This document shows positions 23,698 to 32,000 of a stretch of 32,000 bases of DNA, in pieces. The number at the start of each line of letters is the position of its first letter. Position 1 is the first letter of the stretch. Made by a program: the position numbers and the translations under genes. Source of the stretch: an uncultured Candidatus Cenarchaeum sp. (GTDB lineage: Archaea > Thermoproteota > Nitrososphaeria > Nitrososphaerales > Nitrosopumilaceae); the NCBI GenBank assembly GCA_958295735.1, contig OY282369.1, positions 324,161-356,160 of the forward strand, given 5' to 3'. Under the pieces are notes generated by a model. That model saw only the letters and a list, made by a program, of their open reading frames with translations. It was not told the origin of the DNA and did no database searches.

Positions 23698-25155
23698 GTG
23701 GCCAGGAGTCTCGCGGAGGCCCTGTCGCGGCTGGCCGACTCCGTGGCCGACTGCGCCAGGGCGGGCAGGCAGGTCTCCGTGACCACCCACATAGACTGCG
23801 ACGGCCTGGCAGCCGGCGGCATACTGGCGAAGGCGCTGGCCAGGGCCGGCGCGCCGTTCACGGCGTCGGCGGTCAGGGAGTTCGGCAGTTCCGCGGTCGA
23901 GGCCCTGCGGGCCGGGACCAGGGAGTTCCACATAGTGGCCGACCTGGGAAGCGGGGCGGCCTCCATGATGGATAAGGCCCTCGGGGAGGACTGGTTCGTA
24001 CTGGACCACCACCAGATACCCGACGAGGAAATGGACGACGCGAGGGTGGCCAACGCGTGGGCCTTCGGGATGGACGGCGGGACCGGCGTGTGCGCGGGCG
24101 GCATGGCGTACATGGCGGCCAAGGCCATGGACGGGGGCAACGCCGACCTGGCCCCCGCGGCCGTGGTGGCCGCGCTGGGCGACAGGCAGGACTCGGGGGA
24201 GCGCAGGTCCCTGTCCGGCGCCAACGGCGACATAGCCGCCGAGGCGGAGGAGGCAGGGCTGCTGGACGTGTCCACGGACCTGCTGCTGGTGGGCAGGGAG
24301 ACCAGGCCGCTGCCCGACGCCCTGGCGTACACGTCGAGCCCGTTCATAGAGGGGATAACGTGGAGGAGGGACGCCTGCGCGGCCCTGCTCTCGTCCGCGG
24401 GCATCCCCCTGAAGTCCGGCGGGAGGTGGCGCGTCCCGGCCGACCTCACCGAGGAGGAGAAGAGGTCGGTCGTGGAGGCCCTGGCGGGGCGCGCCGCCGG
24501 CGACTCGGTGGACGGGCTGGTGGGCAGCGCGTACACGTTCCCCGAGGAGGACGCGCTCACCTTCCTGAGGGACGCCAGGGAGTACTCCACGCTGCTCAAC
24601 GCCTGCGGCCGGACGGGCCGCACGGGGACGGGCATGGCCGTGTGCATGGGCGACCGCGGGCGGGCGCTGCGCGGGGCCGAGGAGGCCCTGAAGGAGTACA
24701 GGAAGAGCATCAGGACCCAGATGGACGCGCTCACCGGCCAGGGCTGGAAGAGGGTCGACGAGGAGGCCGGGGAGGGCCTCGTGGTGGTCAACGGGGAGGG
24801 GGTCGTCCCGGAGACGATGTCCGGCACGCTGGCCTCGCTGGTGGCCGGCGCGCCGGGCAGGGCCGGGAAGATAGTGGTCCTGTGGACCGGCTCCGGGGGG
24901 GATCCCGGGAAGGCGGCGGGGGAAAAGGGGGCGCCCGGCGGCTCGGTGAAGATCTCGTCCAGGATGTCCGCCTCCTGCAGCACGGGGGCCAACCTGGGCA
25001 GGATAATGGGCGAGGCGGCCGCCGAGTGCGGCGGGGTCGGCGGGGGGCACGCCAGGGCGGCCGGCGCCAGGATAACTAGAGACAAATTGGGCCGGTTCCT
25101 CGGGATGGTCGGAGGGCATGTCGCTAAGGTGCACGGTGCGGGTGGCGCTCAATGA
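23698..25155 (+). CDS. RecJ-like DHH-family phosphoesterase/exonuclease
   Basis: GTG start 12 nt after the rps15 stop. Motifs: DHH motif I VTTHIDCDGLAAGGILAKAL and motif III FVLDHHQIP, plus a C-terminal DHHA1-like GGGHARAAGA. The first 134 codons of the track ORF overlap rps15 out of frame and are rejected. Confidence 0.85.
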   Translation: MARSLAEALSRLADSVADCARAGRQVSVTTHIDCDGLAAGGILAKALARAGAPFTASAVREFGSSAVEALRAGTREFHIVADLGSGAASMMDKALGEDWFVLDHHQIPDEEMDDARVANAWAFGMDGGTGVCAGGMAYMAAKAMDGGNADLAPAAVVAALGDRQDSGERRSLSGANGDIAAEAEEAGLLDVSTDLLLVGRETRPLPDALAYTSSPFIEGITWRRDACAALLSSAGIPLKSGGRWRVPADLTEEEKRSVVEALAGRAAGDSVDGLVGSAYTFPEEDALTFLRDAREYSTLLNACGRTGRTGTGMAVCMGDRGRALRGAEEALKEYRKSIRTQMDALTGQGWKRVDEEAGEGLVVVNGEGVVPETMSGTLASLVAGAPGRAGKIVVLWTGSGGDPGKAAGEKGAPGGSVKISSRMSASCSTGANLGRIMGEAAAECGGVGGGHARAAGARITRDKLGRFLGMVGGHVAKVHGAGGAQ

Positions 25156-25369
25156 CGCCGGGGAGGCGCGGGCGCGCGCCGTCATGGAGGCGCTCGGCCC
25201 CGACAATTCCGGGTTCCCCGACGGGGTGTCCATGGAGATGCTGGCGGAGAAGGGATGCCTCGTCCTGCTGTTCCGCGGCGAGGGGGATGCGGGGGTCGCC
25301 GGCGCCTTGGCGTCCACCATAGACGACGCGCTGGGGCACGCCCAGGTGGCCCTCGGGGTGACCGAATGA
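25118..25369 (+). CDS. small protein, Pcc1-like (KEOPS subunit) candidate
   Basis: 83 aa: ...ALNDAGEARARAVMEALGPD...GCLVLLFRGEGDAGVAGALASTIDDALGHAQVAL. Its size and alternating pattern resemble Pcc1. It overlaps the recJ-like 3' end by 38 nt and shares an ATGA junction with serS. The family call is tentative. Confidence 0.45.
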   Translation: MSLRCTVRVALNDAGEARARAVMEALGPDNSGFPDGVSMEMLAEKGCLVLLFRGEGDAGVAGALASTIDDALGHAQVALGVTE

Positions 25370-26625
25370 TGCTGGACCCCAGACTGTACAGGGAGGAGCC
25401 GGGCAGGGTCCGCCGCATGCTGGAGGCCCGCCGCTCCGGGTTCGACCTGGACGCCCTCGTGCGGGCGGACCGCCTCATGAGGGACCGCTCCAGCGCCGTG
25501 GACGGGGCGAGGAGGAGGAGGAACGAGGCCGGGAAGACAATAGCGCGGCACAAGGGGCGGGGCGGGGAGGCCGAGCGGCTGCTGGGGGAGATGAGGGGGA
25601 TGGCCGGCCGCCTGGAGGAGGCCGAAAAGCGGAGGAGCGCCGCCGAGGCCGAGTGCATGGCGCTGGCCAGGACCATACCCAACATGCTGCACGAGTCCGT
25701 CCCGGACGGCCCCGACGGCGCCTCCAACGTCATAGTGAGGAGCTGGGGCGAGCCCCGCCCCGCGGAGGGGGCCAGGGACCACGTCAGCATAGCGGTGGGC
25801 AGGGGCCTCGTCGATCTGGAGGGGGCGGCCAGGGCGGCCGGCGCCAGGTTCTACTACCTGAAGGGGGGGCTCGTGCGGCTGAGCCAGGCCCTCGTCTCGC
25901 ACGCGCTGGACCTGCTGGAGGGAAGGGGCTACGAGCCGGTGCAGCCGCCGTACCTGATAAACCGCAGGTCGATGGAGGGGGCCGTCATAGCCGAAGACCT
26001 CGAGGGCGCCATATACGGGGTGGAGGGGGAGGACCTGTACCTGATAGGCACCTCCGAGCACGCGGTGGCCGCCATGCGCGCCGACTCCATAATGGACGGG
26101 AAGAAGCTGCCGGCCCGGTACGCCGGCGTCAGCCCCTGCTTCCGGAAGGAGGCCGGGGCGCACGGCGACCAGAAGGGGATATTCAGGGTGCACCAGTTCG
26201 ACAAGGTGGAGCAGTTCGTGTTCTCCAGGCCGGAGGAGTCGTGGGCCGAGCACGAGAGGATGCTGGGGATAGCCGAGGAGTTCTACAGGAGCTTGGGCAT
26301 ACCGTACAGGGTGGCGCTCCTCTCCAGCGGGGACACCGGCAGCGTGGCCGCCAAGACGTACGACATCGAGGCGTGGATGCCCGGGCAGGGCGCGTACAGG
26401 GAGGTGGTGTCCTGCTCCAACTGCCTGGACTTCCAGTCGAGGAGGCTGATGGTCAGGTTCAGGGACAGCACCGACGCGGCCACCTCGTACGCGCACACGC
26501 TCAACAGCACCGTGGTGGCCACCACCAGGGCCATGGTCGCCATAATGGAGAACTTCCAGGAGGACGACGGGCGCGTCCGCGTGCCCGACGCGTTGCGGGA
26601 CCGCGCGGGCGCCGACTACGTGTGA
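25366..26625 (+). CDS. serS: seryl-tRNA synthetase
   Basis: MMLDPRLYREEPGRVRRMLEARR... is the N-terminal coiled-coil arm. Class II motifs include FYYLKGGLVRL, YLIGTSEHAVAAM, VSPCFRKEAGAHG, GIFRVHQFDKVEQF, SCSNCLDFQSRRL and TLNSTVVATTR. Confidence 0.95.
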   Translation: MMLDPRLYREEPGRVRRMLEARRSGFDLDALVRADRLMRDRSSAVDGARRRRNEAGKTIARHKGRGGEAERLLGEMRGMAGRLEEAEKRRSAAEAECMALARTIPNMLHESVPDGPDGASNVIVRSWGEPRPAEGARDHVSIAVGRGLVDLEGAARAAGARFYYLKGGLVRLSQALVSHALDLLEGRGYEPVQPPYLINRRSMEGAVIAEDLEGAIYGVEGEDLYLIGTSEHAVAAMRADSIMDGKKLPARYAGVSPCFRKEAGAHGDQKGIFRVHQFDKVEQFVFSRPEESWAEHERMLGIAEEFYRSLGIPYRVALLSSGDTGSVAAKTYDIEAWMPGQGAYREVVSCSNCLDFQSRRLMVRFRDSTDAATSYAHTLNSTVVATTRAMVAIMENFQEDDGRVRVPDALRDRAGADYV

Positions 26626-26652
26626 GCTCCGGGCGGGCCACAACGGTAATTA

Positions 26653-28005
26653 TTGCCCGCGGCGCATCGGCGCGCGTTGAACGTGCTCTCCGTAGCCGGA
26701 TCCGACCCGTCGGGGGGGTCCGGCGCGCAGGGCGACGTGATGACGCTCGCCTCGCTGGGCTGCCGCGGCCTGACCGCCGTGACGGCAGTGACGAGCCAGG
26801 ACACGTCGGGGTTTGCCGGGGCCGAGCCCGTGTCCCCGAAAATGCTGGGGGCGCAGCTGGACTCGCTGCTGGCCGACTTCGACGTGGCGGCCGTAAAGGT
26901 GGGGATGCTCCTCACGGCGGCGGCCGCGCGCATAGTCGGCCGGCGCATCGCGGAATACGGCGGGCCCGTCGTCGTGGATCCCGTCGTGCGCTCCACGACG
27001 GGGGGCGTCCTGCTGCGGCGCAGCGCCCTGCCCGAGTTCAGGAGAAGCGTAGTGCCTGCCGCCACCGTGATAACGCCGAACGAGCAGGAGCTGCTCGCCG
27101 TATCCGGAAGGCCCGGCATGTGGGAAGGGGCGCGGGCGCTCGCGGGCATGGGGGCGCGCTGCGTGGTGGTGACAGGGGTGGCCGGCCCGGGGACCGTCTC
27201 GGACGTGGTGTTCGAGGGAGGAAAATCGTACCGCCTGGGCGGGCCGGCCATGGGGGACGGCCGGATACGCGGGAGCGGGTGCGCGCACTCGGCGGCGCTC
27301 GCCGCCTACCTCGGGGAGGGGCGCGGCATCGGCGAGGCGGCCCGCGCCGCGAGGCGGTTCGCCAGGCGCGCCATCAGGAGCGCGTCGCGCGCGGGCGCCG
27401 GGATCCCGGTGGCCGGCCGCGGGGCCCCGCGCCCGCCGGAGGGCGGGAGGAGGGGGCTGGCCCTGCTGGAGGCCGTGCGGGAGCTCGCCCGCACGGACGG
27501 CATCGGCAGGCACATACCGGAGTGCCAGACCAACTTCGCGTTCGCCCGGCCGGGCGCCAAATCCGTGAAAGACGTGCTCGGCCTGGACGGCCGCATAGTG
27601 CGGTGCGGCCCGCGCAGGGAGGGGGCCGCCGTAGCCGGCCGCGTGAGGTACGGCGGCTCGCGGCACGTGGCCGCCGCCGTCCTGGAGGCCGGCAGGAGGT
27701 TCCCGCAGATCCGCTCGGGGGCCAACATGCGGTACGACGAAGACGTCGTGCGGGTGATGGAGGGGGCAGGCATGTCGGTCGCGCGGTACGACAGGGCGGC
27801 CGAGCCGCGCCGCGTGCGGGAGGAGGAGGGCGCGTCGGTCCCGTGGGGGGTGCGGGAGGCGCTGGCCGGCCTCGCGGCCCCGTGCGATGCGGTCTGCCAC
27901 GCGGGGGCCCACGGCAAGGAGGCCATGGTGGTAGTGTTCGGGAGGGACCCGCCCGACGTGCTAGAGAAGATCCGCCGCGTGGCCGCGGCGGCTGGCCGGC
28001 GGTAA
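26653..28005 (+). CDS. thiDN: bifunctional ThiD (HMP/HMP-P kinase) - ThiN (thiamine-phosphate synthase) fusion
   Basis: N-terminus: LSVAGSDPSGGSGAQGDVMT...VKVGMLL...VVDPVV...ITPNEQE...GSGCAHSAALAAYL (ThiD). C-terminus: IPECQTNFAFARPGAKSVKDVLGLDGRIV...YGGSRHVAAAVL...NMRYDEDV (ThiN). The TTG start at 26653 is uncertain. Confidence 0.9.
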   Translation: MPAAHRRALNVLSVAGSDPSGGSGAQGDVMTLASLGCRGLTAVTAVTSQDTSGFAGAEPVSPKMLGAQLDSLLADFDVAAVKVGMLLTAAAARIVGRRIAEYGGPVVVDPVVRSTTGGVLLRRSALPEFRRSVVPAATVITPNEQELLAVSGRPGMWEGARALAGMGARCVVVTGVAGPGTVSDVVFEGGKSYRLGGPAMGDGRIRGSGCAHSAALAAYLGEGRGIGEAARAARRFARRAIRSASRAGAGIPVAGRGAPRPPEGGRRGLALLEAVRELARTDGIGRHIPECQTNFAFARPGAKSVKDVLGLDGRIVRCGPRREGAAVAGRVRYGGSRHVAAAVLEAGRRFPQIRSGANMRYDEDVVRVMEGAGMSVARYDRAAEPRRVREEEGASVPWGVREALAGLAAPCDAVCHAGAHGKEAMVVVFGRDPPDVLEKIRRVAAAAGRR

Positions 28006-28075
28006 GCCGTCCGCCCGCCGCGGATCTGATCCGGCGGGGGTAGCGGCGCGCCCGAGGCGGCGGGGAAGGTTGCGG

Positions 28076-28991
28076 CACGATGCGCCTAGCAGTTTATCCC
28101 GTACGTCACCGTCTGCGTTATGCTGTCCGCCTCCAGCAACCCGACCGCGGAGAGGTTTATCAGAAAGTCGACGTCCATGCTGCCGGCGGCCGGAACCCCC
28201 GACGGTATGGCCGTCCCCGGCGCCAGCGGGACGAAGCTGGCCACGGCGCGACGCTGGGAATGTAGAGCGAGTTCATTTCGAGCGCGATGCCGTAGGTGTC
28301 TAATCCCCCGAGCAGCGCGCCGGGGACGCTAAGCCATTCCGGCGCGGCCGTCCAGTTGACCAAGCTCGCGTTGACCTGCCCGCTTGGTGCCTGCTGCCAG
28401 CCCGTCAAGACGATGGAAGGCACGGACCAGGCGCCGTAAGTGATAAGCAACCGCAGATCGCCGGCGGCGTTCAGGACTATCCTGCCCGTCGGGCCGCCGT
28501 CCGCGTCCGCCGCCTCGTGCACGTAAGAGCCGGCCTCTAGGATCGCCTCCCGCTAGCACCAGCGCCCTTCCCAGCATGCGCGCGGCCTCGTACGCGGCGT
28601 ACGCAGTAGCCGCCGCGATGCCCGGCGCGGCCACCCCGGCCGCGCCGTCTATGACGTCGGCCATGTTGTTCCGCTCCGCCGCTAGCTGCACCGCGGCGAG
28701 TCCCGTCCACCGGGCGAGCGTCGGCGCCGCCTCGCCTTTTGGAATCGCGCCGATGACCACCTCGTCGCGCCTTCCCCACGCCAGGCCCGACCACTTGCCG
28801 GACTTTGACATCTCGGCCATGCCCGGGATGGTGAACTGGATGCTTGCGGAGAGCGGCCCCTTTTCAAGCTTGACGCTCGTGATCTGATCGTAGGAACAGT
28901 CCTCGACGTTTTCGCCGAGGCCGAGCTTTGTGGGGTTGCGCATCGCGATTCTCTTGCGGGTCACAAGGATGGTGTCGGGCGTCAGTGCCAC
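28076..28991 (-). pseudogene. bPH (bacterial PH, YdbT/DUF304-like) domain gene apparently broken by two frameshifts
   Basis: Coding-looking sequence continues on one strand through three frames. Frame A (28991 to ~28550): ILVTRKRIAMRNPTKLGLGENVEDCSYDQITSVKLEKGPLSASIQFTIPG... Frame B (to ~28255): GRIVLNAAGDLRLLITYGAWSVPSIVLTGWQQAPSGQVNASLVNW... Frame C (to the TAG at 28076-28078): VASFVPLAPGTAIPSGVPAAGSMDVDFLINLSAVGLLEADSITQTVTYGINC. The tail of each frame after the switch point reads as R/G/P/W junk. Confidence 0.45.
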
Positions 28992-29988
28992 CGCACCCCG
29001 TTATGTGTATACGCACAGCATACAGTCCAAAAGATCACAGTCAAAAGATCCTGCATTTAAACCAAAATTTGGTGATGGGCAAGCCCACCAAAACAGGCCC
29101 AGGGGTGAAGCGCGGCGGGTCAGGCGTGCACAAAAGAACAACGCGTGATCAGCATCACATACCAAATCCAGACTCCTTCAAGGCATCTTCAATCGATTTG
29201 CCTTCACGGTGTTTCTCGTTGTATGCTTTTTGATCTGTTATTTTATACTTGCCAAAATCTCCCAACTCTACAAAATAGTTGTCGCCGCCTTCTCCCATGG
29301 GCCCCAGATGAGATTTCCCCACGTGCACGACAATATCCTCTCCGATTTCGAACTCCGGCTCATGTGAACTGATGTAGTATTTGTCGTCTATTTTTTCTGA
29401 ATCCAGGTAGAAAGTAAACGAGTCACCGCGTTTGTAGCTTTCGCCTTCGACGTTCTTTGTGTTTGTCACAATCTCGATGGTGATTGGAATTGCCCCGTGT
29501 GTTATCCCAACATTGTCATGCCAGTCCACTGGCTTGCCAACATCCATCACTGTTCCTCTAAATGTTGCTACGACTGTGTGCTTGATCCTAGAAATATCTG
29601 TGGTTTTCCATGATGCTGAGCTTGGAACAACTATGAAATTTTCACTAATTTTTGTTATATTTGATGGGGTGTAGGAAAATTCTCCAGAATGCGGCACATA
29701 GCCATCTTCATACACGAACTGATCAAATAACACGATGCTGGCTAGGGCGATGATTATGGCAGTTATGCCAATTGAAAATATCGTCCTTTTCAACCTAATA
29801 CACCCCATTGGTTTGTTCCTTGTCGGTGGTTTTTATTGTGGCACATCCGGGAGTACAGTCAGATTTCACAATTGTGTGTGAATCTGAATCAGAATCAGAA
29901 TCAGGCGCATGACCAAGACCCGCAAAATGTCCAAGCTCGTGATTTGCTACATATTTGATGTTTTCGCCTTCCCACCAATTGTGCGGGA
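28992..29988. other. AT-rich compositional island (putative horizontally acquired DNA)
   Basis: GC is visibly far lower than anywhere else in the window, for example 'aaaagatcacagtcaaaagatcctgcatttaaaccaaaatttgg'. The island contains two ORFs with AT-rich codon usage and abuts an IS element. Confidence 0.7.
29155..29808 (-). CDS. membrane-anchored hypothetical protein (217 aa) in the AT-rich island
   Basis: An N-terminal TM (TIFSIGITAIIIALASIVLF) followed by a complex extracytoplasmic domain rich in K/E/I/N. It overlaps the upstream metzincin remnant by 14 nt. Confidence 0.7.
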   Translation of the reverse strand: MGCIRLKRTIFSIGITAIIIALASIVLFDQFVYEDGYVPHSGEFSYTPSNITKISENFIVVPSSASWKTTDISRIKHTVVATFRGTVMDVGKPVDWHDNVGITHGAIPITIEIVTNTKNVEGESYKRGDSFTFYLDSEKIDDKYYISSHEPEFEIGEDIVVHVGKSHLGPMGEGGDNYFVELGDFGKYKITDQKAYNEKHREGKSIEDALKESGFGM

Positions 29989-30022
29989 TCCCAAAAGTGG
30001 CGACCCTCCCTTCACCTGACAC
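29795..30022 (-). pseudogene. N-terminally truncated zinc metalloprotease (metzincin/matrixin-type HExxHxxGxxH)
   Basis: The 75-aa ORF contains NIKYVANHELGHFAGLGHA, then a (DS)4 linker and a Cys-containing tail. The ~100 aa that normally precede the zinc site are missing. In frame upstream there is a TGA (30050-30052), which is the transposase stop. Confidence 0.6.
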
Positions 30023-31172
30023 GATACTGTTCCCCCGTCTGCTTGTCCGTCACGATCTTGGCCCCGGGCGGCGGCAACTTCCGCCGGAATGCCAAGGCAG
30101 GCGTCTCTCTCCTCTTTTGAGGGACATGTGCCTCCTGTCGTAGTTGTACCACTTGATCAGCCTGGCCGCCGGATCCGTCTGTCCAGACGAGTTGTATATG
30201 TCCCCCGCGCGGCCCGTACGCGGGCCGCGGACGGTCTTGTGGCGCGACGCGCCGATGAACCTGGCAGCCTGCGCTGCAGCTCCCCGTGGAACCTCTCCAG
30301 CTTGCCGATGGTCTGGGGGTGGTTGATGCGTGCCAGCGCGTGCCGCATGCCAGGCCTGGCCAGCTCCTTCTCGAACTCCGTCTCGCCCCTCCTCCCGGAC
30401 TCCGACTCGTTGGCGCAGGACTGGGACCCGTGGTCGGTCATGACGGATGCGGGCCTGCCGTGCTCCTCCATCGCCTTCCCGAGGACATCCAGCGCGTGCT
30501 TCCCAGCGGCCTCCTCGAACACGCCGAAGCCGGTTATGAGGCACGAGGCATCGTCCATGCACTCGATGAACCATCTCCCGCCATACAGCATCTTGCAGTC
30601 GGTGTGCCACGCGTAGTTGGAATGCGTCCTCTCGAACCTGACCCGCTCGCGCTGCCCGCTCTTCTTGGGTTGCGCCTCCGCCATGTCCTCGCCCATCAGC
30701 ACCTTGTGTATGGTGTTGCGCGGTATATGTAGGCCGGTATCCTCCTTGTTGTCCTCCTCCAGCCCGCGTGCCCCGCACTCGTTCCTGTGCCTGCCGGAGC
30801 ACGGCAGAGTGCTCCCTGCGTCCGGGGATGCTGCCGGCCTGCCCATGCGGGCGGGGTACGCGATGTCCTTGGGCTCGCAGCCCCCGTACCTCCCCCACAG
30901 CCTCTTGACCCAGGACGCCGAGACCTTCATGGCCTCCGCCATCCGCGCGTCCGTCATCTCGCCCTCGCGCTTCTGGCGGACTACCCACCTGACGCGGCCC
31001 TCGTTCAGCTTCATGGCTCCGGCCTGCCGTGCCCCGACTTATTGCTTTGGATCGGGGCAAAGGCCGACCCCCCGCCTTCATTCCCACTCCGCGGATCACC
31101 CGTTCAGCACGCCTCCGTCGTCCGGCTTGGGCGCACGCGCGCGCGTGCAGAAGGGGGTCACTGCTTTTGGGA
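29989..31172. mobile_element. IS element (~1.2 kb, rve/DDE transposase, IS481/IS3-superfamily-like); boundaries tentative
   Basis: Candidate imperfect terminal inverted repeats: 29989 'tcccaaaagtggcgaccctcccttc' versus the reverse complement of 31149-31172, 'tcccaaaagcagtgacccccttc'. An outer 'attgtg' also matches. I found no target-site duplication. Confidence 0.5.
30050..31014 (-). pseudogene. DDE (rve-type) transposase with a C-terminal frameshift
   Basis: The 285-aa frame holds an HTH (MTDARMAEAMKVSASWVKRLW), then WHTDCKML, MTDHGSQ and HPQTIGKLERFHGEL, and then becomes junk. The conserved tail (AARLIKWYNYDRRHMSLK) lies in another frame that ends at the TGA at 30050-30052. Confidence 0.8.
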
Positions 31173-31249
31173 CTACACAATCCGGGGCCGCCGCCGCGGG
31201 CGGCCGCGCCCCGCCTCAGAATAAATAGAGAACGCGCGGGGCCGCGCCC

Positions 31250-31960
31250 GTGAGATCCGTGATACTGGCCGGCGGCCTCGGGACGAGGCTGCAGCCGTAC
31301 ACCATGTTCCTCCCCAAGCCCATGCTCCCCCTCGGCGAAAAGCCGCTCCTGGAGCACCTCGTGGACTGGAACAAGAGGAACGGCGTCCGCCACATAGTCA
31401 TGTGCGTGAGCTACCTGAGGAAGACCATACAGGACTACTTTGAGAACGGCGGGAGGTTCGGCGTGGAGATCGAGTACGCCGTCTCGGACAGGCCGCTCGC
31501 GACGGCCGGCCAGCTCAGGACGGCCGCCGGCCTGCTCGACGGCGGGGGCGGGCCGTTCGCCTGCATGTACGGCGACTCGGTATTCGATTTTGGGCTGAGG
31601 GGCATGGCGAGGCTCCACCGGAAGAGGGGCTCGTTCATCACGATGGGCCTGTACGAGTACAGGACGAGCCTCCAGTACGGGGTGATCGAGACGGACGCGG
31701 GCGGGACGGTCACGAAATGGGACGAAAAGCCCGAGATCAAGGCCCGCATAAACATGGGCTGCTACATCATGGAGCCGGGCGTCATGGACTACATACCGGC
31801 CGGAAAGCCGTACGGGATGGACGGCCTGGTGCGCGGGGCCATGGCGGCGGGCAGGCCCGTGGGCAGCTTCACCACGAAGAAGGGGTTCACGGACATCGGC
31901 GACAAGGCCTCGTACAAGAAGGCGTACCAGCGGTTCCTCGAAAAGCTGGGCAGCATATGA
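31250..31960 (+). CDS. sugar-1-phosphate nucleotidyltransferase (glucose-1-P thymidylyl/uridylyltransferase-like)
   Basis: (GTG)RSVILAGGLGTRLQPYTMFLPKPMLPLGEKPLLEHLV... carries the N-terminal GxGTRL signature. A TATA box 'agaataaatagag' (31218-31231) lies ~20 nt upstream. Confidence 0.9.
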   Translation: MRSVILAGGLGTRLQPYTMFLPKPMLPLGEKPLLEHLVDWNKRNGVRHIVMCVSYLRKTIQDYFENGGRFGVEIEYAVSDRPLATAGQLRTAAGLLDGGGGPFACMYGDSVFDFGLRGMARLHRKRGSFITMGLYEYRTSLQYGVIETDAGGTVTKWDEKPEIKARINMGCYIMEPGVMDYIPAGKPYGMDGLVRGAMAAGRPVGSFTTKKGFTDIGDKASYKKAYQRFLEKLGSI

Positions 31961-32000
31961 GCGGGATCGTAATACGGAGGGCCGCCGAGGGCGACGTCGC
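31957..32000 (+). CDS. next gene, 5' fragment (ATGA-coupled to the nucleotidyltransferase)
   Basis: The ATG at 31957 overlaps the TGA at 31958-31960 and reads MSGIVIRRAAEGDV... It is truncated by the window edge. Confidence 0.4.
   Translation, partial: MSGIVIRRAAEGDV

Follow-up and report, generated by a model that had tools for sequence, protein, structure and literature searches.

TIMPs are the natural inhibitors of the matrix metalloproteinase (MMP) family of proteases. The prokaryotic systems closest to the locus analyzed here are (i) potempin A (PotA) of Tannerella forsythia, a surface-anchored OB-fold inhibitor that is co-encoded with karilysin and protects the surface of its producer (PMC9890683), and (ii) the Mtz-Tim pair of Listeria, of mobile-element origin, in which a metzincin gene is directly followed by the gene of an anchored TIMP-like lipoprotein, and Mtz cleaves Tim (PMC8235301). 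A brief mention of MMP-like genes in Nitrosopumilales is found in PMC12587646. In the present work, we describe a 32,000-nt stretch of DNA from an uncultured Candidatus Cenarchaeum sp. (the window; positions 324161-356160 of a single 3,166,131-bp contig with a GC content of 69.9%) and, within it, an AT-rich block that holds an intact gene for a 217-aa protein, p217, and the end of a metzincin gene cut off by an insertion sequence (IS). The block is probably a horizontally acquired fragment of a two-gene cassette, comprising the IS-truncated protease and its intact partner p217.

The AT-rich block and its truncated protease

The block extends over positions 28992-29981 of the window and contains the intact p217 gene and the last 61 codons of a matrixin-like metzincin of approximately 200 aa. 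The features of the block and of the adjoining element are:

29155-29808, minus strand: p217, intact gene for a 217-aa protein with an N-terminal transmembrane (TM) helix and a beta-rich, OB-like ectodomain
29795-29980, minus strand: metzincin stump, the last 61 codons and the stop codon of a ~200-aa matrixin-like protease (tblastn, alignment A2)
29909-29941, minus strand: zinc motif HELGHFAGLGH within the stump (codon positions)
28992-29154, minus strand: 3' flank of p217 and left edge of the block, with several oligo-T runs on the coding strand
29982-31179, minus strand: degenerate IS481-family element of 1198 bp, at the bounds of which its sister copies end exactly

Measured in 500-bp windows, the GC content of the genome has a mean of 69.9%, a standard deviation of 7.5 and a 1% quantile of 46.8%. 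The bins 29001-29500 and 29501-30000 have GC contents of 46.0% and 42.6%, compared with 66-78% in the flanks; outside the block, values of 63-86% are found nearly everywhere in the window, and no other stretch of it falls below 50%. The GC content at third codon positions (GC3) is 0.46 in p217 and 0.355 in the protease stump, whereas the reference set of approximately 1400 long genomic open reading frames (ORFs) with a gene-like GC1/2/3 pattern has a median GC3 of 0.886, with 0.52 as the 0.1% quantile. Host-typical values are found in the neighboring genes, namely the IS transposase (0.87), thiDN (0.93) and the NTP-transferase gene (0.93). An earlier reading made from the sequence alone (the sequence-only reading) had described the block as the only AT-rich one in the window, with a codon usage unlike that of the other genes, and had proposed a compositional outlier test; both statements hold, and in such a test the block is an extreme outlier in GC and GC3. 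The block is real and far beyond chance, and it is one of about fifty in the genome, where 52 merged stretches have less than 50% GC.

The right border of the block coincides with the start of the IS. The 75-aa ORF that spans this border (29795-30022, minus strand) overlaps the start of p217 by 14 nt and begins with a GTG codon. When full-length relatives were used as tblastn queries, only residues 142-200 matched, at 29798-29980 (74% identity for the relative from locus L010), and the homology of the AT-rich DNA to the L010 cassette reaches 29981, the last base before the IS. Thus, the ORF owes its GTG start and its first 14 codons (29982-30022) to the IS, and only 61 codons are protease. The sequence-only reading had assigned all 75 codons to the protease and had placed the end of the island at 30022; its identification of a metzincin C terminus with the HELGHFAGLGH motif stands, but both its length and its border are corrected here.

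With 61 of approximately 200 residues remaining, the stump is not a complete catalytic domain. It scores 21.1 bits with the Pfam matrixin family (cut-off 24); matches to Gallidermin were below their cut-offs and were dismissed. The H, E, H, G and H residues of the zinc motif are invariant in the protease alignment A2. The Met-turn of the stump reads HTIVK, whereas 13 of the 13 relatives have Met at one or both positions; since both candidate Met residues are lost, the catalytic signature is not fully intact. Other substitutions confined to the stump, such as QTNG for QING, were observed in the same alignment. The nonsynonymous (dN) branch of the stump is 0.11, approximately three times longer than those of the L010 and L011 proteases (0.035-0.04), whereas the dN branch of p217 is 0.15 compared with 0.13-0.14 in its relatives; the comparison uses dN branch lengths only, because saturation of synonymous sites led us to reject pairwise dN/dS. 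The long branch and the lost Met residues characterize the stump as a drifting pseudogene, whereas p217 shows no sign of relaxation.

The bounds of the IS, 29982 and 31179, are given exactly by homology to two sister copies in the genome (88% and 92% identity, blastn), and its terminal inverted repeats are imperfect (approximately 29982-30006 and 31155-31179). The rve/IS481-like transposase (ORF 30157-31014, minus strand, 285 aa) matches NCBIfam IS481 with E=9.5e-36 and 123.8 bits (curated equivalog cut-off 224) and Pfam rve with 32.8 bits (cut-off 32.6), and is broken into three frames by 1-nt deletions at approximately 30263 and 30115 relative to both sisters. The IS is flanked by unrelated sequences (AATTG and ATCCG), whereas the sister copy at 1.634 Mb has a 13-bp direct repeat, its target duplication. 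Host-type sequence resumes within 7-20 bp to the right of the IS, where it can be aligned with the NTP-transferase promoter of other genomes of the genus. Residues 1-140 of the protease have no credible match anywhere in the 3.17-Mb genome (tblastn, E<=10). Because a target duplication is lacking and the missing half is absent from the genome, the IS event was not a simple insertion. The sequence-only reading had reached the same view: it had the protease N terminus replaced by the end of the IS, which agrees with a truncation exactly at the IS terminus, and it had seen the NTP-transferase promoter, not the missing half, across the IS, and had argued for an IS-associated deletion or rearrangement.

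Such an event would have removed the promoter, the signal peptide and approximately 140 N-terminal residues of the protease. Two orders of events may be proposed: either the IS inserted and an adjacent deletion then ran into the cassette, or the foreign DNA arrived as a fragment that was joined at the IS end. In the genome as a whole, tblastn detects 38 merged IS481-like transposase loci, many of them fragmentary; this litter is in line with relaxed selection under a host-restricted or symbiotic lifestyle.

At the opposite edge of the block, the oligo-T runs in 28992-29154 may constitute an archaeal terminator. This segment has no homology to other cassette loci in blastn searches, in which the homology of relatives begins only at 29171.

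The insert, its empty site and its origin

The sequence-only reading had treated the AT-rich island as the feature as such. The AT-rich block stands, but it makes up only the middle third of a larger composite insert, which consists of a GC-rich pseudogene on the left, the AT-rich fragment in the middle and the dead IS on the right, each about a third. The insert and its neighbors are:

28003-31198, no strand: lineage-specific composite insert of 3.2 kb between thiDN and the NTP-transferase gene
26653-28005, plus strand: thiDN, left flank of the insert
31250-31960, plus strand: NTP-transferase gene, right flank of the insert
28076-28991, minus strand: GC-rich pseudogene with a bPH_3-like N terminus, truncated at profile position 21, and a distal part that belongs to a repeat family

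We searched for the empty site in four same-genus genomes (G001-G004; loci L013-L016). In G002 and G004, thiDN is directly followed by the NTP-transferase gene in the same orientation, with a spacer of approximately 50 bp versus 3.24 kb in the window. Window segments 27483-28002 and 31199-31953 align to positions of L014 that are merely 28 bp apart; in G002 and G004 together, the aligned flank segments are 28-35 bp apart, and the TATA-box arrangement of the spacer is like that of the window. Since the two genes lie approximately 50 bp apart in these genomes, the region around 28003-31198 is a lineage-specific insert. p217 was not found in G001, G002 or G004; the only relative in G003 is a paralogue of 31% identity at a different locus. 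Within this one genus, the GC content at the NTP-transferase locus has an unusually wide spread, from 43.5% in G003 and 58.8% in G001 to 71-73% in G002 and G004.

Homologues of p217 were retrieved from several collections. A collection of 5.8 billion proteins contains 21 of them (39-66% identity, all of approximately 200 aa, none named), and a profile search of 1.84 billion representative proteins yielded 68 p217 clusters. Among 401 genomes of Nitrosopumilaceae, 28 have a match, concentrated in a few genera and often in 2-5 copies. The 18 matches in species-representative genomes all come from metagenome-assembled genomes (MAGs), 17 of them titled Nitrosopumilus or Nitrosopumilaceae and one titled 'bacterium'. 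The host contigs mostly have 32-46% GC, and in GC-richer hosts (52-61%) the gene is again AT-richer than its flanks. In the maximum-likelihood tree, the window p217 belongs to a clade with L010, L011, L009 and L001/L018 (a Nitrosopumilus MAG), with support of 100/99. Domain associations in distant p217 relatives were uninformative, one large match being probably spurious, and the distant representative P0042 has only contigs shorter than 1 kb as context.

Thus, the occurrence of homologues in Nitrosopumilus and other Nitrosopumilaceae, mostly of low GC content, points to low-GC relatives as the donor pool and not to the host animal. The homology search for donor lineages suggested in the sequence-only reading therefore led to Nitrosopumilaceae MAGs: its proposal of a foreign origin gains support from the extreme composition, the empty site in G002 and G004 and the lack of p217 in three of the four same-genus genomes, but with regard to its possible donors, the host or co-resident microbes, neither the host animal nor unrelated microbes are borne out. 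Deviant composition, an empty site and homologues in a lineage of matching composition together characterize a horizontally acquired islet.

Vertical inheritance would instead require that the block is an old low-GC remainder which did not follow the lineage to high GC, and that the relatives have lost it precisely. Given that the GC content at this locus ranges from approximately 43% to 73% within the genus, the ancestor could conceivably have been AT-rich. However, all other genes here have a GC3 of about 0.89, two same-genus genomes have nothing but a compact spacer of ~50 bp at the site, and in the tree the window p217 groups with Nitrosopumilus-type sequences, apart from the single paralogue in a same-genus genome. 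We looked in relatives for AT-rich orthologues at this locus, which would have indicated vertical descent, and found none. Vertical inheritance is already contradicted, and we regard it as hardly credible.

In other genomes, p217 is found in typical variable regions, which contain HNH and AbiV as well as transposases of the IS1595, IS4 and IS6 types. A viral vehicle was considered and rejected: p217 has no relatives in the viral contigs of IMG/VR and no PHROG or PADLOC match. As to integration signals, there is no tRNA gene in 24000-32000 and no Rfam match in 27500-31500. At L002:3574-8782, in a Nitrosopumilus MAG, two directly oriented IS6/IS240-type transposase genes bracket an intact cassette; with shared segments that are 74-89% identical, this arrangement is at best an old composite-transposon-like one.

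The left part of the insert, the pseudogene at 28076-28991, matches Pfam bPH_3 (E=2.4e-7) over profile positions 21-72 only. Its distal segment belongs to a genomic family ('family-a') of 36 merged copies with 65-78% identity (blastn). In the window, the corresponding GC-rich segment of approximately 650 bp lies at 28080-28731; some copies of the family occur in series with a spacing of 7-20 kb (for example, at 538-589 kb and 2783-2881 kb), and for an intact 285-aa copy (L047:1447-2304), searches of Pfam, PADLOC and PHROG gave no match. The genome has another, larger AT-rich island at positions 2658400-2662800 (L047:2400-6800; 35-46% GC), which encodes a type III restriction-modification pair (N6_N4_Mtase, E 7e-37; ResIII, E 2e-19); like the window island, it lies between a family-a gene copy and an IS481-like element. 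A genome-wide tie of the 52 low-GC islands to IS481-like loci or to family-a was dropped as unconvincing against random placement: 9 islands lie within 2 kb of an IS and 5 within 2 kb of a family-a copy, compared with 3.9 and 3.7 under random placement, with a maximum of 10.

The position of the block between two repeats also bears on the assembly. A piece of a low-GC Nitrosopumilus genome from the same sample community might have been misjoined at a repeat, and indeed one junction lies at a multi-copy IS and the other beside a member of a multi-copy gene family. However, the nearest copies of the IS differ by 8-12% and those of family-a by 22-35%, which is too much for a repeat-induced misjoin; host-composition DNA lies on both sides within a single 3.17-Mb contig; and the boundary between the stump and the IS terminus is exact to the base, as a real IS junction would have it. 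We therefore consider such an artefact very improbable.

The window islet is an IS-eroded horizontal acquisition, the remnant of a module of a metzincin and its anchored partner, and its interest lies chiefly in the unannotated archaeal partner family. The cassette would circulate patchily among low-GC Nitrosopumilaceae as a gene for a small, secreted, prodomain-less matrixin-like protease together with a gene for a membrane-anchored p217 protein of approximately 200 aa, a fragment of which would have come to lie, as part of the 3.2-kb insert, in an otherwise ~50-bp spacer between thiDN and the NTP-transferase gene. The block represents a clean and, in principle, datable import from low-GC relatives into an extremely GC-rich, IS-laden and probably symbiotic ammonia oxidizer, and it shows how ISs erode imported genes.

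p217 and the conserved gene pair

Comparison of the p217 loci revealed a gene for the protease directly upstream of p217 on the same strand in L002, L005/6, L010, L022, L024, L031, L033, L034 and L042. The same order is found in the distant pairs L054, L055, L057 and L058 (p217 profile E 1e-12 to 1e-39). Altogether, the protease gene is followed by p217 in at least 12 loci, with a spacing that ranges from an overlap to a 12-nt gap. The sequence-only reading had p217 as a 217-aa TM-anchored protein of no recognized family; it has no domain match indeed, but it is not an isolated protein, being the conserved downstream partner of a protease family. p217 represents a small unannotated family of Nitrosopumilaceae, a conserved partner of archaeal MMP-like proteases.

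The full-length proteases are approximately 200 aa long and have a signal-peptide-like N terminus, four conserved cysteines, the zinc motif and an HT[M/A][M/I/N]K Met-turn. The L010 protease passes Pfam Peptidase_M10 (PF00413; 25.4 bits versus 24). Its AlphaFold2 (AF2) model (pLDDT 77.5) finds karilysin (4in9, 8b2q), MMP-13, MMP-8 and MMP-11 as best Foldseek matches, with target-normalized TM scores of 0.72-0.75 and E 2e-5. By profile score and model, the intact relatives are matrixin-like metzincins with the MMP fold.

In the clade of the window p217, the protease is intact in L010 only. Its N terminus is lost in the window, the L011 gene is frameshifted, that of L009 is truncated and contains stop codons, and in L001/L018 an internal deletion leaves approximately 50 N-terminal codons; p217 is intact in all these cases of decay. 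Elsewhere, C-terminal protease stumps are found in L004 and L026, and other loci have no trace of the protease.

p217 itself has no credible match in Pfam, NCBIfam, PADLOC or PHROG; a Pfam match to Crb2_Tudor (16.9 bits versus a cut-off of 26) was dismissed. In the family alignment A1, a hydrophobic N-terminal helix is followed by a linker with the conserved motif PSDITKAN and by an ectodomain that is strongly conserved. The helix (residues 13-30 in the model) is kept across the alignment; the anchor is this TM helix and not a lipobox. All 36 invariant columns of A1 are retained in the window p217, which deviates at 2 of the 53 near-invariant columns, within the range of the family. In the AF2 model (mean pLDDT 82.6, above 90 over most of residues 80-210, low confidence at 24-36), the TM helix is followed by an all-beta domain. 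The top five Foldseek matches in the PDB are NTR domains, including agrin NtA and the PCOLCE NTR, followed by TIMP-2 (including its complexes with MMPs) and the NTR domains of C3 and C4; the top matches have a probability of 0.99 and E values of about 0.02, E is 0.02-0.15 for the NTR domains and TIMP-2 and 0.02-0.3 over the matches as a whole, and the TM scores are approximately 0.5. At the sequence level, no TIMP or NTR match was found in Pfam or NCBIfam.

The start of p217 and a putative promoter were predicted as follows. The TTG codon at 29793 aligns to the ATG start of relatives, and the ATG at 29808 adds 5 codons. Upstream of the ATG, within the protease stump, lies a further feature:

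29830-29837, minus strand: TATA-like box AATAAAAA, at -29 to -22 from the p217 ATG

The neighboring native NTP-transferase gene has the same box geometry (box 31220-31227, start 31250). At the site of the box, relatives with an intact protease read ATCAAAA, whereas the window and L009, where the protease is broken, have an uninterrupted A/T run. We infer that the box AATAAAAA is a candidate internal promoter, from which p217 is probably still transcribable, and the two cases, the window and L009, hint at promoter capture at decapitated protease loci. In three independent loci, protease stumps start near the same residue (approximately 132-142 of 200) and p217 is intact (L004:5798-5989, L009:133-339 and window 29798-29980). 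The shared start could reflect selection to keep a p217 promoter in the 3' end of the protease gene, or it could be a coincidence.

These features also bear on the possibility that the whole block is inert debris, in which p217 is neither expressed nor useful and is intact merely because little time has passed. None of the neighboring modules of the insert is intact: the pseudogene is frameshifted, the protease is reduced to a stump and the IS is dead. The ancestral ATG of p217 is now a TTG, and the block is barely ameliorated in composition. On the other hand, p217 keeps the residues that are invariant in the family and shows no excess of amino-acid changes, unlike the adjacent 61-codon stump; it has an in-frame ATG with a well-placed TATA-like box; and four other lineages of the window clade also retain p217 after loss of the protease. 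We hold debris to be a rather unlikely explanation. Only the orphan partner p217 is left in this genome, and it may be useful, for example, against the proteases of co-resident relatives, or may simply not have decayed yet.

By analogy with the known pairs, p217 is most likely a membrane-anchored inhibitor or partner of the protease. In the intact cassette, p217 would reside on the outer face of the membrane, expose its OB-like domain and bind the co-secreted protease, either as an inhibitor that shields the surface of the producer, as in PotA-karilysin, or as an anchored partner that is processed by the protease, as in Listeria Tim. A role in inhibition and self-protection is tentative, and we rate it somewhat short of an even chance. 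According to the other option, p217 would be a membrane-anchored pro-form or substrate that is cleaved to release an active TIMP-fold fragment, or a surface tether for the protease. The gene order, protease and then anchored partner, is like that of Listeria mtz-tim, where Mtz cleaves Tim (PMC8235301), and the long, partly conserved PSDITKAN linker between the TM helix and the folded domain, where the AF2 model is of low confidence (residues 24-36), could be a cleavage site. However, if p217 had to be cleaved by this protease in order to act, it is difficult to see why it repeatedly stayed intact where the protease was lost, and a substrate or tether role seems unlikely.

A more specific proposal is that the p217 family represents a new archaeal cysteine-free inhibitor of the TIMP/NTR fold, directed at secreted MMP-like proteases that lack a prodomain, that the secreted protease is a weapon or a tool for surface remodeling among ammonia-oxidizing archaea that occur together, and that the orphan p217, kept after the protease was lost, confers 'immunity' against the proteases of neighbors. 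If true, it would explain the patchy, multi-copy and island-associated distribution of the family and the repeated loss of the protease alone; we consider it quite improbable.

Several observations weigh against reading the block as an acquired remnant of a protease-inhibitor pair. With regard to the acquisition, G002 and G004 are distant (approximately 75% nucleotide identity in the flanking gene), and the timing of the insert is bounded just loosely; moreover, a near-identical donor sequence is lacking, the best match having 66% amino-acid and approximately 70% nucleotide identity. With regard to function, p217 often occurs without any protease gene, which is not predicted by a dedicated inhibitor of a cis-encoded enzyme alone. 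The profile of the p217 family has no sequence match to any PDB chain (E<=10), and the NTR/TIMP match is weak, with generic OB-folds (PriB, SSB and RPA) interleaved at almost equal scores. Finally, none of the 36 invariant and 17 near-invariant columns of A1 is a cysteine, and an N-terminal Cys is also lacking; thus, the zinc-chelating mechanism of TIMPs cannot apply. The fold alone is just suggestive; the weak NTR/TIMP match becomes a coherent lead through the fixed adjacency to an MMP/karilysin-like protease.

Comparison with known systems

The IS at the border of the block resembles the IS481 family in its DDE/rve transposase, terminal inverted repeats, many genomic copies and a sister with a long target duplication, and the truncation of the neighboring gene exactly at the IS end resembles IS481 elements with adjacent deletions. 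It differs in having two frameshifts, no target duplication and a score below the NCBIfam cut-off.

Vertebrate TIMP/NTR proteins (MEROPS I35; agrin NtA, PCOLCE NTR, C345C) provide the top Foldseek matches of the p217 model. In contrast to them, p217 lacks Cys1, the conserved disulfides and a profile match, is membrane-anchored and archaeal, and its fold match is below Foldseek significance.

Karilysin and PotA (a KLIKK peptidase and its potempin; PDB 8b2q) likewise combine a prokaryotic MMP-like catalytic domain with a surface-anchored partner that is an OB-fold beta-barrel. The differences are that (i) potA is located upstream of the protease gene, whereas p217 is downstream, (ii) PotA is a lipoprotein of 98-132 residues, and (iii) karilysin has a short prodomain and a C-terminal domain for type IX secretion; no sequence relation to the window pair was found.

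Mtz-Tim of Listeria monocytogenes differs in that Tim is anchored as a bacterial lipoprotein, by a lipobox, in contrast to the archaeal TM helix at the N terminus of p217, and there is no sequence similarity between the two; a CI/Cro switch controls the Listeria pair, what has been shown for Tim is cleavage by Mtz and not inhibition of it, and in the window the protease is destroyed. Both systems share the gene for a small secreted metzincin followed by that for a membrane-anchored protein that is TIMP-like in predicted structure but not in sequence, as well as mobile-element contexts and a patchy distribution. The protease-partner concept is already known for bacteria such as Listeria and Tannerella, and in this respect the advance is incremental. 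By analogy with these systems, the p217 family may be an archaeal counterpart of TIMPs or of potempin-type inhibitors; if inhibition is true, the MMP-inhibitor pairing would extend to Archaea and provide a handle on the secreted proteases of marine ammonia oxidizers.

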